This document shows positions 6,949-11,458 of a stretch of 64,000 bases of DNA, piece by piece. The notes beneath the pieces are model-generated. The model made no database searches and was not told the origin of the DNA. It worked only from the letters and a program-made list of their open reading frames with translations. The stretch spans positions 604,129-668,128 of the forward strand of contig CP129476.1 in NCBI GenBank assembly GCA_030583805.1. Reading direction: 5' to 3'. This DNA is from Patescibacteria group bacterium (GTDB lineage Bacteria > Patescibacteriota > Patescibacteriia > SG8-24 > DYFX01). How positions within the stretch are numbered: position 1 is the first letter of the stretch; every line of letters starts with the position of its first letter. The position numbers and the translations under genes are program-made.

Positions 6949-7698
6949 TTAGGAATTCAGAATATACCCGGTAATCGTCAATACCGCAAAGGTCACAACG
7001 GCCAAGGCGAGGAAAATCAGCCCCCACAACTTGAGCCGCCGCGCCCGCGCTTTTCGGTGAAACAGATCCTCCAATTTCAACTCGGCTTCATGGGCGACCT
7101 CGGCGATGCCCTTGCGCGCGTCGACCAGGACGAGCTTCCCTCTCGCGGCGAACCATTCCTTGAGCGGTTCGGTGACTTCGTGATAGTGCCGGAGGCGTTC
7201 TTCGACGAGTTCCGGGGTGTCGTCGCCGCGCCGCACGAGCTCTCCGCCGCACTTGTCGCACGTGCCGTTCGGGCTGTGCGGAGGCTGCGTGATCAGGTTG
7301 TAGTTCGTCTTGCATTTCGAGCAGAGGCGGCGGTACGAAATGCGCTTTTTGGAATCCTCGTCCGGCACTTCCAGATAGAGCACGGCGTCAGGCTTGAAAA
7401 AGCTTTCGCACTTCTTCGCCTGCTCGACCGAACGGGGAAATCCGTCGAGAATCCACCCCTCCGGATGCTTGGAGACCCAGTCCTTCACGAGCGGCATGAT
7501 GATGTCGTCATCAACGAACGCGCCCTTGGCCATTTCGATTTTCGCCGTGTGGCCGCGTTTGGAATCTTCGTTCTGCAACTCACGAAGCAATTCGCCGACC
7601 GAAGCGGTCTGCACGCCCATGATGACGCTCAGGATGTGCGACTGCGTGCCTTTACCGGAGGCCTGCGTTCCGAGCACGGCGACTTTCATCCGCTTCAT
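6949..7698 (-). CDS. adk: adenylate kinase with Zn-LID and an unusual C-terminal hydrophobic tail
   Basis: Start chosen at MKRMKVAVLG (ATG 7698); the upstream part of the track ORF is R-rich and overlaps the neighbouring gene. P-loop GTQASGKGTQ, LID CSKCK...CDKCGG. Last 30 aa RRLKLWGLIFLALAVVTFAVLTITGYILNS look like a TM helix. Confidence 0.85.
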   Translation of the reverse strand: MKRMKVAVLGTQASGKGTQSHILSVIMGVQTASVGELLRELQNEDSKRGHTAKIEMAKGAFVDDDIIMPLVKDWVSKHPEGWILDGFPRSVEQAKKCESFFKPDAVLYLEVPDEDSKKRISYRRLCSKCKTNYNLITQPPHSPNGTCDKCGGELVRRGDDTPELVEERLRHYHEVTEPLKEWFAARGKLVLVDARKGIAEVAHEAELKLEDLFHRKARARRLKLWGLIFLALAVVTFAVLTITGYILNS

Positions 7699-8546
7699 GA
7701 TGGAAAAATGAAGAATGAGACGATGTAGGCAAGGGAAGCGCCGAGCGCGATGGGTGGCAGCGCCGGAATCGGCCTGCGTCGCGGTTGGGCGAGAAACAAC
7801 ATGAACATGAGGGCGAAACCGAGCGAGGCGCCAGCCAGCGTCGCGACCGCGTGCACGGGTCCAGTACGAAGCGCCGCGATGGCGAGCATGACGGGCAGCG
7901 CGACGTCGCCCGTGCCGAGCAGCATGCCGCGCTGTTCCGAAGAAGGCGCGGAGAGCAGCGCTCGCGGCGTAAGCGGCGTGAGCACGAACGCGAAAACGAC
8001 GCCGTGCGAAGAAAGGTCGCGGAACATTTTGACCATGTGCTTCGTGCGGTACACGGCCACAATATCGTAGAAGGAAAGCACGGTCAAAAGCGCGAGCATG
8101 GCGACGGGAGACATCTCGAGCGCCAGGCTCGCGGCGATGCCGGCGATGCCGACGACCAAGACCGCGTTCGCCGCGCCCGCGGCTTTCCACAAGAAGCGCA
8201 GCAGGATCACCGCTGATCCGAGCAGCAGGGCGATTCCCGGAGTGAAAAAGATGTCGGCCAGGAACCAGGTGCCAGCCAGGACCGAGAGCACGAAGAGCGC
8301 TTCAAAGACGATCGGGTTCTTGAAGGCGCGGAGCGCCAAGATGAGCATCGCCGTCGCAAACAAGATCAGCATGAGCACGTACGGCACCGACACCGCCGCC
8401 GAGGGTACATACCCGCCCCGCACGATCGTTTTCGCTCCGGCGGCCAGCGCCAGTCCGCCCGTCACGAAAAAGATGAGTAGCCCGTGGGCAAGAATGCTCC
8501 ACTGCTCCCCCTTCGGCAGCGCGGCGACGGGATGATGGTCGGACAT
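7695..8546 (-). CDS. polytopic membrane protein with presenilin/signal-peptide-peptidase-like YD and GxGD motifs
   Basis: Start chosen at MSDHH (ATG 8546). About 8 predicted TM helices. LSFYDIVAVY (YD) and LLGTGDVALP (GxGD), then PPIALGA (possible PAL-like), in the order seen in A22/presenilin-like intramembrane aspartyl proteases. Stop is adjacent to the adk start. Confidence 0.5.
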   Translation of the reverse strand: MSDHHPVAALPKGEQWSILAHGLLIFFVTGGLALAAGAKTIVRGGYVPSAAVSVPYVLMLILFATAMLILALRAFKNPIVFEALFVLSVLAGTWFLADIFFTPGIALLLGSAVILLRFLWKAAGAANAVLVVGIAGIAASLALEMSPVAMLALLTVLSFYDIVAVYRTKHMVKMFRDLSSHGVVFAFVLTPLTPRALLSAPSSEQRGMLLGTGDVALPVMLAIAALRTGPVHAVATLAGASLGFALMFMLFLAQPRRRPIPALPPIALGASLAYIVSFFIFPS

Positions 8547-8566
8547 ACGCAGGCAGTGTACCAAAA

Positions 8567-8586
8567 ACCCGGCTATTAGGCCGGGT
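8567..8586. terminator. palindromic hairpin CCCGGC-tattag-GCCGGG
   Basis: Perfect 6-bp GC stem between the 8596-8940 gene and the presenilin-like gene. Confidence 0.35.
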
Positions 8587-8595
8587 TCGAGAGGA

Positions 8596-8940
8596 CTACC
8601 GCTTCGTCGATGAGGTCTTGCGGAAGGCGTACACATAGGTCGTTGTACCATCGCCGCCGCCCGACCCGCCGTCGAAGCCTTGATCGAGGAGATAGGTCTC
8701 GGTATCGCGAGCGTGCTGATCGTGACCAGCGTCGTTAAAAATCCACGCACCGTTCTCGGCCACGCCATGATCTTCGAACAGGCGCTTGCGCGGATTGGCA
8801 GCAATCCCGACGTACCAGTTTCCGAGCTCGCAGTCCACGCCGTCGCAGCGAGTGGCGTACTGTTTGATAGCCTCGACTATTTTCCAGTCAGTCATATCGG
8901 TCATTGGGTTATGCGGATAAAAATCGGACAAGGGTTTCAA
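8596..8940 (-). CDS. hypothetical small protein with weak GIY-YIG-like motif
   Basis: 114 aa. NWYVGIAANPRKRLFEDHGV resembles the YIG...RR..H half of GIY-YIG/UPF0213 proteins. Gly-rich tail. Sits in the inserted block beside XRE/ImmA. Confidence 0.4.
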   Translation of the reverse strand: MKPLSDFYPHNPMTDMTDWKIVEAIKQYATRCDGVDCELGNWYVGIAANPRKRLFEDHGVAENGAWIFNDAGHDQHARDTETYLLDQGFDGGSGGGDGTTTYVYAFRKTSSTKR

Positions 8941-9115
8941 ATCGGGCCAGGACGGGGCATAATAATAAAGGGACGCCCCTCGACCTTGTCGTGGCCGGAT
9001 GTTCTACCTGCGTTAGCCTCCTCCAGCCGCAAAACTTGGGGAGGCTTTCGCTATTTTTGAGGCTATCACGACGGGTCACTCCGTACAACCTCAAAAAATT
9101 GAGGTTTATCCACAG

Positions 9116-9144
9116 TTGACGATACCGCCGGCGTAGAGTATCTT
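9116..9144 (+). promoter_or_regulatory. sigma70-like promoter TTGACG-N17-TATCTT, about 7 nt before the XRE ATG (near-leaderless)
   Basis: Hexamers and spacing read directly. No SD between the -10 and the ATG at 9151. Confidence 0.45.
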
Positions 9145-9150
9145 TTCCAC

Positions 9151-9465
9151 ATGGACGAAATGCGCGCGTTCTATCGGCCTCTCGGGGAAGCTCTTCGAAA
9201 TACTCGAATCGAGCTAAATTTAACGCTGGAGGAGACTTTGATTCGAAGCGAGCTTGGTCTAAACAAGTCTTCCCTGGTCAACATAGAAAAGGGACGGCAA
9301 CAGATTTCAATTTTTCAACTTTATAGACTATGTAAAGCCTTGCGGATCTCCCCTACTCATTTTCTTGAACAAGTATTCGAAACCCCTGTTAATCTCGATT
9401 TAGGTATTTTCCTGAGTGACGGATCGGAAAGAAAGAAAATGATTGAACTGATCAACAAGTATTAG
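9151..9465 (+). CDS. XRE-family helix-turn-helix transcriptional regulator
   Basis: 104 aa. LRNTRIELNLTLEETLIRSELGLNKSSLVNIEKGRQQISIFQLYRLCKAL is a Cro/C1-type HTH. Local GC is far lower than the flanks. Confidence 0.75.
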   Translation: MDEMRAFYRPLGEALRNTRIELNLTLEETLIRSELGLNKSSLVNIEKGRQQISIFQLYRLCKALRISPTHFLEQVFETPVNLDLGIFLSDGSERKKMIELINKY

Positions 9466-9466
9466 C

Positions 9467-9994
9467 ATGTTCTACAATCAGACAAATGAGCTGCGAAGCA
9501 GGGCTAGTAAATTAATTGAACTTTTGCCTTTGGAAAAAAGGATACCCGTTGCGGTTGAAGATCTTCCGGGTCTTTTGGGAATCAATGTAGATTATTCTGA
9601 TAGTCTTCCAGACGAAATATCGGGCTTCTTTAAAAGGAACGGAAAGGGAAATACTCCTGTAATTGTGATCAATAGCGCACACCCAAAGGAGCGCGGACGT
9701 TTTACGCTCGCTCATGAGATTGGACATTACCTACTGCACGCGCAAAAGGCAGTCACTATTAATACACTGCATTTCCGGAAAAGAGATAGCAGCCTTTCAC
9801 TTGATCTTGAAGAAATTGAGGCGAATCAATTTGCTGCAGAGCTATTGATGCCCTACCATTTGATGATTTCAGAAATTACCGGTAGCGATTTATTAAATCA
9901 TGATTCCGTGAATAAACTTACAACTAAACTTTCAAAGAAGTTTCTGGTAAGCGAACAGGCGATGACTTTCCGTATTGCCAAGCTTTTTTTCTAA
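9467..9994 (+). CDS. ImmA/IrrE-family zinc metallopeptidase (COG2856-like)
   Basis: 175 aa. HEIGHYLLH HExxH motif plus downstream E...AAELLMP, characteristic of ImmA/IrrE. Its ATG lies 2 nt after the XRE stop. Low GC. Confidence 0.8.
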   Translation: MFYNQTNELRSRASKLIELLPLEKRIPVAVEDLPGLLGINVDYSDSLPDEISGFFKRNGKGNTPVIVINSAHPKERGRFTLAHEIGHYLLHAQKAVTINTLHFRKRDSSLSLDLEEIEANQFAAELLMPYHLMISEITGSDLLNHDSVNKLTTKLSKKFLVSEQAMTFRIAKLFF

Positions 9995-10010
9995 AAATTT
10001 GTACTAAAAG

Positions 10011-10040
10011 AACCGCCAAAGGGCGGCTCTTTTTTTCTTC
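10011..10040 (+). terminator. rho-independent terminator CCGCC-aaag-GGCGG followed by a T7 run
   Basis: Stem-loop plus T-run immediately after the ImmA stop. Confidence 0.55.
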
Positions 10041-10129
10041 ATCCTCGCGTACTGATTATGACATTCGACGCGGTGCGGGTACTGCCCTGGAAACCCGTTG
10101 TTTGGAGGGGTATTACTCGTGCTGCGTCA

Positions 10130-10170
10130 ATACCAAAAGAACCCCGACATGACGTCGGGGTTCTTTCTTG
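10130..10170. terminator. bidirectional hairpin AACCCCGAC-atgac-GTCGGGGTT downstream of secY
   Basis: 9-bp stem, A-rich before and T-rich after. Confidence 0.5.
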
Positions 10171-10174
10171 GATC

Positions 10175-11458
10175 TTATTTGATGCTGTCGTAGTCGTACT
10201 CGCGCATCGTCATCTGACTCTCGACCTGCCGGACGATTTCCAGCACGACCGAGACGATGATGAGGAGCGAGGAGCCGCCGACGACCAGGTTCTGCGAGCC
10301 CGTGAGGAACTGCTGAACCAGGAGCGGCAGGATGGCGATCGCGGCGATCGCGGCTGCGCCAGCCAGGGTGATGCGGTTGACCGTATACGTCAGGTAGTCG
10401 GCCGTCGGCTTGCCCGGGCGGATGCCCGGAACGTAGCCGCCCTGCTTCTGCAGGTTTTCCGCGATACGCTCCGGTTTGAAGACGATCGCGGTGTAGAAGT
10501 AGGTGAAGGCGAAGACCAGGACGAAGTACGAAATGCCGTACACGAGCTGGTTTTGCGAAGCGACGAGCACCCAGTTGGCGGCATCTGCGAGCCATGCCGT
10601 TTTGGCACGGACGAAGAACTGCGCGACCATCGGCGGGAACAGGACGATCGAGATCGCGAAGATGATCGGGATCACGCCGGCCATGTTCACGCGAAGCGGC
10701 AGGTGTGTGTTGGCGCCGCCCGCCGTGCCGTTTCCAACTACGCGCTTGGCGTAGGTTACCGGGACGTTGCGCTGGGCTTCCGAGATCACGACGACGCCGG
10801 CGACCGTCAGCACCGCGACCAAGAGGAACGCGATGTAGATCGGCAGCTTGGACGGATCATACGTGAGCAAGGCTTGCTGCGTGAGGCGCGGCAGGCTCGT
10901 GACGATGCCCGCGAAGATCAGGATCGAGATGCCGTTTCCGACTTTCTGCGCGTCGATCAGTTCGCCGAGCCAGACCAAGAACATCGTACCGGCCGTCATC
11001 GCGAGCAGCGTCGTCGCCAATTGAATGGCGTCGAGGCTCGTGATCACGCCCGAGGACTGCTTGAGCAGGCTGATCATGGCGTAGGCCTGAAGCACCGCGA
11101 GCGGCACCGTCAGGTAGCGGGTGTACTGGTTGATCTTGCGCTGGCCTTGTTCGCCTTCCTTTTGAAGGTCTTCAAGGGCGGGAACGATCATGCCCAGGAG
11201 CTGCAGGATGATGGAGGCGGTGATGTACGGACCGACGCCGAGCGACACGAGCGAGAAGTTGTCGAGCGTGCCGCCGGAGAAGACGTTCATCAGGCCGAGC
11301 AGCTGGTTCGACTGGAAGAACGCCCGCAGGTTCGCCAAATCGACACCCGGAATCGGGATGTGCGCGGCGATGCGGAAGACGACCAGAAGCAGCAGCACCT
11401 TAAGCAGACTGGCACGGAGATCCTTCTGTTTCCAGATTTGGGAGAATTTGGCCCACAT
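10175..11458 (-). CDS. secY: preprotein translocase subunit SecY
   Basis: 427 aa, 10 TM helices, conserved SecY N-terminus and plug region. Confidence 0.95.

Follow-up and report, generated by a model that had tools for sequence, protein, structure and literature searches.

A candidate protease-cleavable repressor switch facing a small unannotated gene between secY and adk of a Patescibacteria genome

XRE-family repressors coupled to ImmA/IrrE-family metallopeptidases are well-known switches, and such a regulatory pair is ordinary when taken by itself. The closest described examples are ImmR/ImmA of the Bacillus integrative and conjugative element (ICE) ICEBs1, together with similar phage pairs (the relationship is cited in 10.64898/2026.05.16.725639 and PMC10440598), and CapH/CapP, which is transcribed divergently from an immune operon (PMC10557695; see also 10.1101/2022.04.27.489752). 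CapP and IrrE, the latter from the DdrO/IrrE (PprI) system of Deinococcus, both combine the peptidase with a helix-turn-helix (HTH) and a GAF domain and sense single-stranded DNA in the groove between domains (10.1101/2022.04.27.489752; 10.64898/2026.05.16.725639), and about one third of CapP proteins carry a cysteine-switch loop (10.1101/2022.04.27.489752). ImmA and Panacea domains have also been described as promiscuous hub antitoxin or sensor domains in the NetFlax network (PMC10440598). Here we analyzed a 64-kb stretch of DNA (the window; positions 604,129 to 668,128 of contig CP129476.1, GenBank assembly GCA_030583805.1; all positions below follow window numbering) from a Patescibacteria group bacterium, in which a cassette of three genes, referred to as XRE, ImmA and p99, lies between secY and adk; p99 is the name given here to a small minus-strand protein. 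We propose that the cassette is a complete module of small size and mosaic origin, whose protease-cleavable repressor would gate a small effector, and we see an even chance that this whole chain holds. Our confidence in the identity of the switch and in its horizontal acquisition is much higher, while that in the activity of p99 is lower.

On the minus strand, the gene order in this part of the window is L15 (11490-11927), secY (10175-11458), the cassette region, a presenilin-like gene (7695-8546), adk, map, ruvX and recO. Two plus-strand genes (XRE and ImmA) and one minus-strand gene (p99) are found between secY and the presenilin-like gene. The XRE gene (9151-9465, plus strand) encodes a candidate HTH repressor of 104 amino acids, which matches the Pfam families HTH_19 (5e-8) and HTH_3 (8e-7), with the HTH at about residues 11-74 followed by a C-terminal tail of 30 residues. 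The ImmA gene (9467-9994, plus strand) encodes a 175-residue zinc metallopeptidase of the ImmA/IrrE family, which matches Peptidase_M78 (PF06114) at 4.4e-22 and 78.6 bits, against a cut-off of 22 bits, over profile positions 4-122 of 123. Its zinc site is intact, with HEIGH at residues 83-87 and E118 in the segment EANQFAAELLMP (residues 118-129), which agrees with the downstream E-x-N-x-F-A-x-x-L-L-M-P segment expected to supply the Glu ligand in M78 proteases. These matches bear out the pair of an XRE HTH and an HExxH ImmA/IrrE protease recognized in a preliminary description of this DNA; the spacing given there as 2 nucleotides (nt) is in fact 1 nt from the XRE stop to the ImmA ATG.

The best PADLOC models were CapH for XRE (6.6e-7) and CapP for ImmA (8e-27), the latter over model positions 2-153 of 242 only. 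ImmA also matches models of RmrA, the RosmerTA antitoxin, to 1.5e-15 through its peptidase part, as well as spr1629-type antitoxin models. It contains neither a cysteine nor a GAF domain, and judged by its structure it appears to be a minimal ImmA-type protease that does not share the CapP architecture. Database entries identical to ImmA and p99 are on record (QY323_ locus tags), and an exact look-up of ImmA in assemblies gave no record. A word-index search of 5.8 billion proteins with XRE (E<=1e-5) returned no match, its own sequence included, which may reflect a different start annotation or an entry that is absent from the collection.

Compared with ImmR/ImmA and the phage pairs, the window shares an XRE HTH protein, a stand-alone M78 protease of about 170 residues without GAF domain, tight coupling of the two and a divergent gene. 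It differs in that the cassette, 1.5 kb in total, lacks an integrase, an excisionase and other mobile genes, in the order of repressor and then protease, and in an identity of only 30-38% to homologues in cultured temperate phages, which are annotated as metalloprotease or antirepressor. With CapH/CapP it shares the best PADLOC models and nearest homologues that are XRE and M78 pairs divergent from Bil and Bub operons. In contrast to CapP, ImmA covers only part of the model, and no cysteine switch is found, as the protein has no cysteine; likewise, the cargo is a single 99-residue gene without PADLOC match and not a recognized immune operon. The likeness to DdrO/IrrE is one of logic, in that targets are induced through cleavage of an XRE repressor by an M78 protease, and would hold here by analogy. 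IrrE, however, carries HTH and GAF domains and serves a chromosomal regulon, whereas the window has a minimal protease in a foreign cassette with one adjacent candidate target. RosmerTA (RmrA), Xre-COG2856 and PanAT combine ImmA or Panacea hub domains with many unrelated small toxins (PMC10440598), which is reminiscent of the RmrA match of ImmA and of p99 homologues that adjoin HTH-Panacea fusions. However, RmrA is a fused HTH-M78 protein of about 380 residues that is co-transcribed with its toxin. No such fused antitoxin is found in the window, which has one gene each for the HTH protein and the protease and a divergent gene for the candidate toxin; this suggests transcriptional and not protein-protein control.

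The nearest relatives of ImmA among the 5.8 billion proteins are only 43-45% identical. An XRE gene adjoins the ImmA homologue in all eight homologue loci, and in three of the nearest loci, viewed in context, it lies directly upstream, with the pair divergent from another operon: a Bub-type ubiquitin-like system (Multi_ubiq, Prok-E2, ThiF/JAB, BubE), a Bil system (YukD-like, BilD/ThiF) and a set of unassigned genes. The homologue loci have a guanine-plus-cytosine (GC) content of 0.57-0.60, and therefore none of them is the donor of the low-GC genes described below. Nearest loci L084 (573-3089 and 4601-8442) and L090 (1815-4502) are defence islands; in one island the Bub-type operon stands beside a Hachiman-like pair of HamA and a helicase, and another holds the Bil-type operon.

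The two plus-strand genes stand out by their base composition. The 1-kb bin at 9001-10000 has a GC content of 0.422, while all other 1-kb bins of the window range from 0.557 to 0.658. GC and GC at third codon positions (GC3) are 0.419 and 0.438 for XRE and 0.405 and 0.386 for ImmA, compared with means of 0.612 +/- 0.038 and 0.781 +/- 0.083 in the 74 open reading frames (ORFs) of the window that were taken as host. When 72 window genes were scored by synonymous-codon likelihood, XRE (z -4.6) and ImmA (z -5.0) had the two lowest scores. The AT-richness attributed to 9151-9994 in the preliminary description is thus confirmed, although the small gene, which had been treated as part of the foreign block, has a GC content of 0.587, a GC3 of 0.71 and a codon z of -1.2, all inside the host range. 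The compositional break lies at about 9050 (at 50-nt resolution), just past a terminator-like hairpin (9015-9047) and its T-rich tail, and separates a p99 part with a GC content of about 0.57 from the low-GC part. Since p99 is host-like in composition and XRE and ImmA are atypical, we regard the cassette as a mosaic from at least two sources, in which a p99 part of normal GC content appears joined to a self-contained low-GC part, where XRE and ImmA have their own candidate operator, promoter and terminator.

To place the cassette, we compared it with ten relatives (L004-L013; SecY identity 77-93%) taken from a SecY scan of species-representative genomes. Eight of them have contigs that extend past secY, and two contigs stop at or just past this gene. 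The order L15-secY-gap-presenilin-like gene-adk-map-ruvX-recO was found in all eight, and none of the ten carries the XRE, ImmA or p99 gene (tblastn). The gap between secY and the presenilin-like gene measures 361-1084 bp in the relatives and 1628 bp in the window. Homology to the closest relatives, L004 and L005, stops at 10126 and restarts at 8589 (blastn and pairwise alignment), the latter being six bases past the p99 stop, at a conserved hairpin (8566-8587); both breakpoints adjoin conserved hairpins. The variable cassette (8590-10125, not strand-specific), 1536 bp long, thus replaces about 330 bp of L004 and L005. The preliminary description had pictured an insertion between secY and adk, for which relatives might show an empty junction. 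The junction lacks the cassette genes in every relative, yet it is not empty, and we read it as a hypervariable slot between secY and the conserved presenilin-like gene in which a replacement, not a one-off simple insertion, has taken place.

The content of this slot differs in nearly every relative, and the two contigs that end there fit strain-level variability. In L004 and L005, the 330 bp hold a small plus-oriented coiled-coil ORF (MxMLTQDDLKAIG...VTKSYLDDKLAHYV), versions of which occur in five relatives (L004:9382-9660, L005:9380-9661, L009:9608-10039, L011:9281-9616 and L012:9379-9624). The ORF has conserved ends, a variable middle and weak coiled-coil Pfam matches only, and has no homologue in the window. 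Other cargo includes a TehB-like methyltransferase (L006:4395-4976), a DUF3467 protein (L011:9650-9949), unassigned ORFs in L008 (1714-2337) and L013, and the apparent start of a P-loop protein in L007 (9282-9512); L010:6711-7392 is also listed among the post-secY slot regions.

Because the cassette comprises only three ORFs and its flanks are syntenic with the relatives, it contains no integrase or recombinase, as the preliminary description had stated. No flanking direct repeats or att-like sequences were found at the cassette ends, and of the hallmarks of a prophage or ICE (integrase or excisionase, element genes, att repeats) none was found in the 1536 bp. One near-repeat (10002-10025 and 10131-10154, 75%) was considered as att-like and rejected, being merely a likeness between two terminators. 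A tRNA scan of the window and an Rfam scan of it at gathering thresholds gave nothing in or near the cassette, and none of 72,556 plasmid records matched the whole cassette by blastn. XRE and ImmA combine an outlying composition with absence from all ten relatives, whereas p99 is absent from the relatives without being atypical in composition. These data support a foreign origin and recent acquisition of the XRE and ImmA pair, as first suggested, and we hold this conclusion with more confidence than the mechanism.

The candidate regulated cargo or effector, p99 (8596-8895, minus strand), is most likely a protein of 99 amino acids that starts at the ATG at 8895, since its database entry and all homologues are about 95-103 residues long; the 114-residue form first described requires a TTG at 8940. 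An initial search gave six relatives, and a full HMMER profile search gave 1,415 cluster representatives at E<=1e-3, of which 773 at <=1e-10. The family thus forms about 1,400 clusters at 50% identity, nearly all of them stand-alone proteins of about 100 residues. The relatives have no Pfam domain and no useful name, and the cluster names carry neither taxonomy nor function. Likewise, p99 itself has no match in PADLOC, PHROGs or NCBIfam and no Pfam assignment, and tblastn against 50,697 phage and 72,556 plasmid records found no match. The core motif of the family is NWYVGI..P..RLF..H...W....AR..E...GGSGGGD...YVYA. Among 150 diverse members, G30 and H43 are invariant, and W27, Y28, R38, L39, F40, V45, A62, R63, E66, G76, G80, G81, V88 and Y89 are nearly so. 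The window protein retains the conserved residues save for a conservative Tyr-to-Phe change at 91, and its AlphaFold2 (AF2) model is confident, with a predicted local distance difference test (pLDDT) score of 89.8. The pattern of invariance suggests that p99 is an enzyme.

A partial GIY-YIG-like motif had been pointed out in p99. This is a fair description, as WYVGI-x7-R-x4-H resembles the YIG strand and the helix with the catalytic Arg and His of I-TevI, UvrC and Cho, followed by an invariant Glu, and R38, H43 and E66 are invariant or nearly invariant in the p99 family. Cho is a LexA-regulated GIY-YIG nuclease. The score against the GIY-YIG family PF01541, however, is 14.3-14.7 bits (E 0.04-0.05) and stays under the gathering score of 22.6 bits. 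At E<=0.1, this model weakly matched 80 of the 150 relatives (best 2e-5), and one of ten individually scanned members reached 22.7 bits, with matches that cover about model positions 5-42 of 78. Only the YIG-like strand (W27-Y28-V29-G30) of the GIY-YIG hairpin is present, and residues 4-21 are predicted to be helical. An hhalign comparison of the family with I-TevI and YhbQ gave only a local YVGI..R..H match of 15-24 columns with low probability, and the equivalence of Arg and Glu to those of GIY-YIG proteins rests on this short match. A profile search of solved structures with the family gave nothing below E 0.35, and no structural likeness to GIY-YIG proteins was found. Membership in the GIY-YIG superfamily is thus unproven, and the resemblance is partial and sub-threshold.

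We then analyzed the neighbourhoods of p99 homologues in 44 fetched loci, 35 of them with distinct p99 proteins. The commonest neighbouring families were Peptidase_S24, subunits of type I restriction-modification (R-M) systems, HTH_3, SocA/Panacea, Peptidase_M78 and HNH. A LexA/CI-like S24 gene lies head-to-head with p99, across gaps of 185-284 bp, in L093 and L096-L100, where type I hsdR adjoins, and in L095, where pheT does; in L002 the two are head-to-head with a DUF2188 gene between them, and in L101 the S24 gene is on the p99 strand. The pairing occurs in four diverged lineages, in three of them head-to-head. Since p99 is only 44-52% and S24 only 35-52% identical between these lineages, the pairing appears to be old and maintained. 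LexA/CI-type S24 repressors resemble the window pair in the divergent target gene, the window using a two-protein cleavable repressor, but they differ in protease chemistry and activation, as M78 is a separate enzyme. S24 repressors self-cleave on stimulation by the RecA filament. The p99 of the window is closest (61-62%) to the S24-paired group of L093; the two closest homologues (P0002 and P0004) lie on 1.1-kb contigs, and their contexts are uninformative.

Other regulators are also found beside p99. L109 and L125 each have an HTH-Panacea fusion head-to-head with p99, L105 has a weakly M78-like gene 40 nt upstream of its p99 gene, and in L106 an ImmA-like gene is found at a distance of 2.3 kb. 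The S24 and p99 genes form a stand-alone two-gene insert in L093 (3952-5159) and L096-L100, beside hsdR/DUF2130, and in L095 (3025-4343), beside pheT. In L108 (1913-4285) and L110 (5438-7810), the p99 homologue is part of an apparent type I R-M string, with an HsdS-like gene upstream and a 504-residue gene downstream. The association of p99 with regulators is suggestive, and in the simplest history the S24 regulator of a module of cleavable repressor and p99 would have been displaced by the low-GC XRE and ImmA pair.

In the window, XRE and ImmA are divergent from the unassigned p99 gene across a common region of 255 bp. A sigma-70-like promoter, TTGACG-N17-TATCTT, was read from the sequence at 9116-9144 (plus strand), as already described; it ends 6 nt ahead of the XRE ATG, and the XRE mRNA is probably leaderless. 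Ten nt upstream of its -35 element lies a perfect 8+4+8 palindrome (9087-9106, not strand-specific), AACCTCAA-AAAA-TTGAGGTT (AACCTCAAAAAATTGAGGTT), which contains the only AACCTCAA in the window and is a candidate operator for a dimeric HTH repressor. At the other end of the pair, a CCGCC-AAAG-GGCGG hairpin (10013-10026) followed by a T-run forms the ImmA terminator (10013-10036, plus strand; z -3.4), which is bracketed by an A-run and a T-run and has a bidirectional look.

The 255-bp region also contains three 9-mers resembling DnaA boxes (motif TTWTCCRCA), one of perfect consensus and two with one mismatch, placed at both gene starts. The perfect copy, TTATCCACA (9106-9114, plus strand), abuts the -35 element; TTTTCCACA (9143-9151, plus strand) overlaps the end of the -10 element and the A of the XRE ATG; and TTATCCGCA (8912-8920, minus strand) lies 16 nt upstream of the p99 ATG at 8895. 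Only four sites within one mismatch of TTATCCACA occur in the 64 kb, three of them in this region, whereas local dinucleotide shuffles contained 0.05 sites on average and none of 20,000 contained three or more. The observation arose from a 12-nt match, GTTTATCCACAG, between the window and the loci with S24 and p99; beyond it, no leftover S24 fragment and no common intergenic sequence was found between them, tblastn included. Since the motif occurs on both compositional halves, it argues that these are functionally joined and that the cassette is no assembly artefact. The sites may serve XRE as operators with a chance likeness to DnaA boxes, or they may be genuine DnaA boxes. A plus-strand promoter-like sequence, TTCAAA-16-CATAAT (8936-8963), also lies in this region and is followed by the hairpin at 9015-9047 and its T-tail, with no Rfam match; the element (8936-9058) could produce an RNA of about 90 nt that would be antisense to the p99 mRNA, should this have a long leader.

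In the switch that we propose, XRE would bind the divergent promoter region at the palindrome and/or the three TTWTCCRCA boxes and repress both its own leaderless transcript and p99. ImmA, co-translated with XRE, would cleave it on a trigger and thereby de-repress p99; judging from ImmR/ImmA, DdrO/IrrE and CapH/CapP, the trigger may be DNA damage or the activity of a phage or mobile element. The product of p99 would be a small effector of enzyme-like character, perhaps a GIY-YIG-type nuclease reduced to its essentials, of a family kept elsewhere under LexA/CI-type S24 repressors or HTH-Panacea proteins and here placed under the low-GC XRE and ImmA in lieu of S24. The XRE sites, the cleavage of XRE by ImmA, the trigger, and the control and activity of p99 are all inferred. 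More tentatively, and as a possibility to which we give clearly less weight, the whole p99 family may consist of effectors or toxins of about 100 residues that are gated by interchangeable S24, XRE plus M78 or HTH-Panacea regulators, the window then representing a swap from S24 to XRE and ImmA with replication-linked, DnaA-box-like operators.

The part of the preliminary description that saw the small gene as regulated cargo finds support in the repeated pairing of its homologues with repressors and in the divergent operons faced by ImmA homologues. Several points weigh against this switch. An adjacent sensor repressor is found in only about one quarter of the independent p99 contexts, the others being type I R-M or housekeeping surroundings. 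A terminator-like hairpin, AGCCTCC...GGAGGCT with a T-rich tail (9015-9058, plus strand; -23.5 kcal/mol, z -3.0), separates p99 from the XRE promoter and could be the boundary of two units that are independent of each other, and no convincing sigma-70 promoter was seen for p99. The strong difference in composition means that p99 and the XRE and ImmA genes did not come jointly from one donor. Finally, ImmA has neither the HTH nor the GAF domain through which CapP and IrrE bind single-stranded DNA.

The same facts would fit two unrelated passengers, with XRE and ImmA an orphan pair or an Xre-COG2856 toxin-antitoxin-like pair that regulates itself and p99 acquired independently. This is rather doubtful in our judgement, although the difference in GC3 (0.39-0.44 against 0.71) and the self-contained look of the low-GC block, with its own promoter and hairpins at either side (9015-9058 and 10013-10036), speak for it, as do the description of ImmA-domain proteins as hub antitoxins (PMC10440598) and the matches of ImmA to RmrA and spr1629-type models. 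Against it stand the nearest ImmA homologues, all of which regulate divergently transcribed cargo, the p99 homologues that are repeatedly head-to-head with analogous repressors, and the DnaA-box-like motif on the p99 side as well as the XRE side of the intergenic region.

The cassette might also be what is left of a prophage or ICE immunity region, in which XRE and ImmA were repressor and anti-repressor, p99 was the first early gene, the rest has been lost and no present function remains. Homologues of ImmA do occur in temperate phages (30-38% identity), p99 is found in phage-like sets (L002 with S24 and a ParB-methylase, L003 with MazG and small ORFs, and L092, an IMG/VR contig), and three ORFs with syntenic flanks and no integrase would be in line with such a loss. 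We consider this unlikely: the catalytic and family-invariant residues are kept, the repressor and p99 recur as a two-gene unit of their own, with pheT or type I R-M genes but no phage genes around them, neither att-like repeats nor pseudogene fragments were seen, tblastn of S24 against the cassette was empty, and p99 found no match in the 50,697 phage records. The word remnant, used in the preliminary description, is likewise doubtful, because all three ORFs are intact, p99 keeps its conserved residues and the layout of repressor and small gene recurs as a stand-alone unit.

Regarding the control region, the three TTWTCCRCA sites might be true DnaA boxes through which DnaA, with or instead of XRE, controls both promoters and links them to replication. 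The local density of the sites, three of the four in the window, which the shuffles never reached, argues for this, and perfect boxes near the p99 start are also present in L094, L095 and L117. The 9-mer sites are asymmetric, and asymmetric 9-mers suit monomeric DnaA better than an HTH dimer. However, with one mismatch allowed, the overall enrichment upstream of p99 homologues is weak and not convincing (0.45 against 0.29 sites per kb), the consensus may not be that of this phylum, and as an operator the perfect palindrome at 9087-9106 would be the more usual choice. Control by DnaA seems improbable to us. It is scarcely credible that the low-GC block arose by chimeric assembly or from contaminating sequence in the metagenome-assembled genome, despite the abrupt 20-point drop in GC content, the lack of anything above 45% identity to ImmA in public data and the failed word-index search with XRE, since the block lies inside a 1.17-Mb contig and is flanked at either end by host sequence, its transitions fall at terminator hairpins in a slot that varies independently in the relatives, and the repeated 9-mer spans both compositional parts.

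The edges of the slot are formed by conserved signals. The secY terminator (10136-10166, minus strand), a hairpin with a perfect 13-bp stem and a T-run (-24.7 kcal/mol, z -4.7), is conserved in the relatives and marks the left edge, followed by a conserved TTGAC at 10130-10126; this hairpin and that of ImmA are both strong, in line with the strong terminators noted in the preliminary description. At the other edge, a block at 8555-8587 (minus strand) contains the conserved hairpin and T-run at 8566-8587 (z -3.0; identical in L004 and L005) and TGGTACACT (8563-8555, minus strand), an extended -10 motif 8 nt ahead of the presenilin-like ATG that is also identical in L004 and L005. The tail of this hairpin ends just 16 nt short of the presenilin-like ATG. 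The block is likely to combine a terminator for the slot genes with an extended -10 promoter for a leaderless transcript of the downstream operon, and the slot would thus be transcriptionally insulated on both sides, leaving the essential neighbours undisturbed. A leaderless appearance was also noted for the XRE gene and for the slot ORF of the relatives, which has a TATACT 8 nt ahead of its ATG.

With the regulatory pair being of a familiar kind, the cargo family and the swapping of its regulators are the part worth following up. The p99 family is sizeable and unannotated in Pfam, NCBIfam, PHROGs and PADLOC, and several unrelated repressor classes have been recruited beside it. Such recruitment is the hallmark of an effector that is dangerous, or useful only under certain conditions, and makes the family a candidate new toxin or defence family. 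On the proposed history, the window would show one damage-responsive repressor system replaced by a non-orthologous one, with the join visible in two base compositions. A slot between a terminator and a terminator-promoter unit, inside the most conserved cluster of a streamlined genome, would allow the exchange of accessory genes without disturbing essential neighbours, and slots of this type inform us where small genomes hold flexible genes.

The gene on the far side of the slot (7695-8546, minus strand) encodes an intramembrane protease of the presenilin/SPP family (Pfam SPP 3.4e-12, NCBIfam PSH 7.6e-14). Members of this Patescibacteria clade (L004-L014) keep the gene between secY and adk, and it is an unusual member of the ribosomal-protein/secY/adk/map cluster. 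In the window, its stop codon and the start codon of adk overlap (ATGA at 7698-7695). The adenylate kinase encoded there (6949-7698, minus strand) has 249 residues and a hydrophobic, transmembrane-like tail, RRLKLWGLIFLALAVVTFAVLTITGYILNS, suggesting that Adk may be anchored in the membrane.

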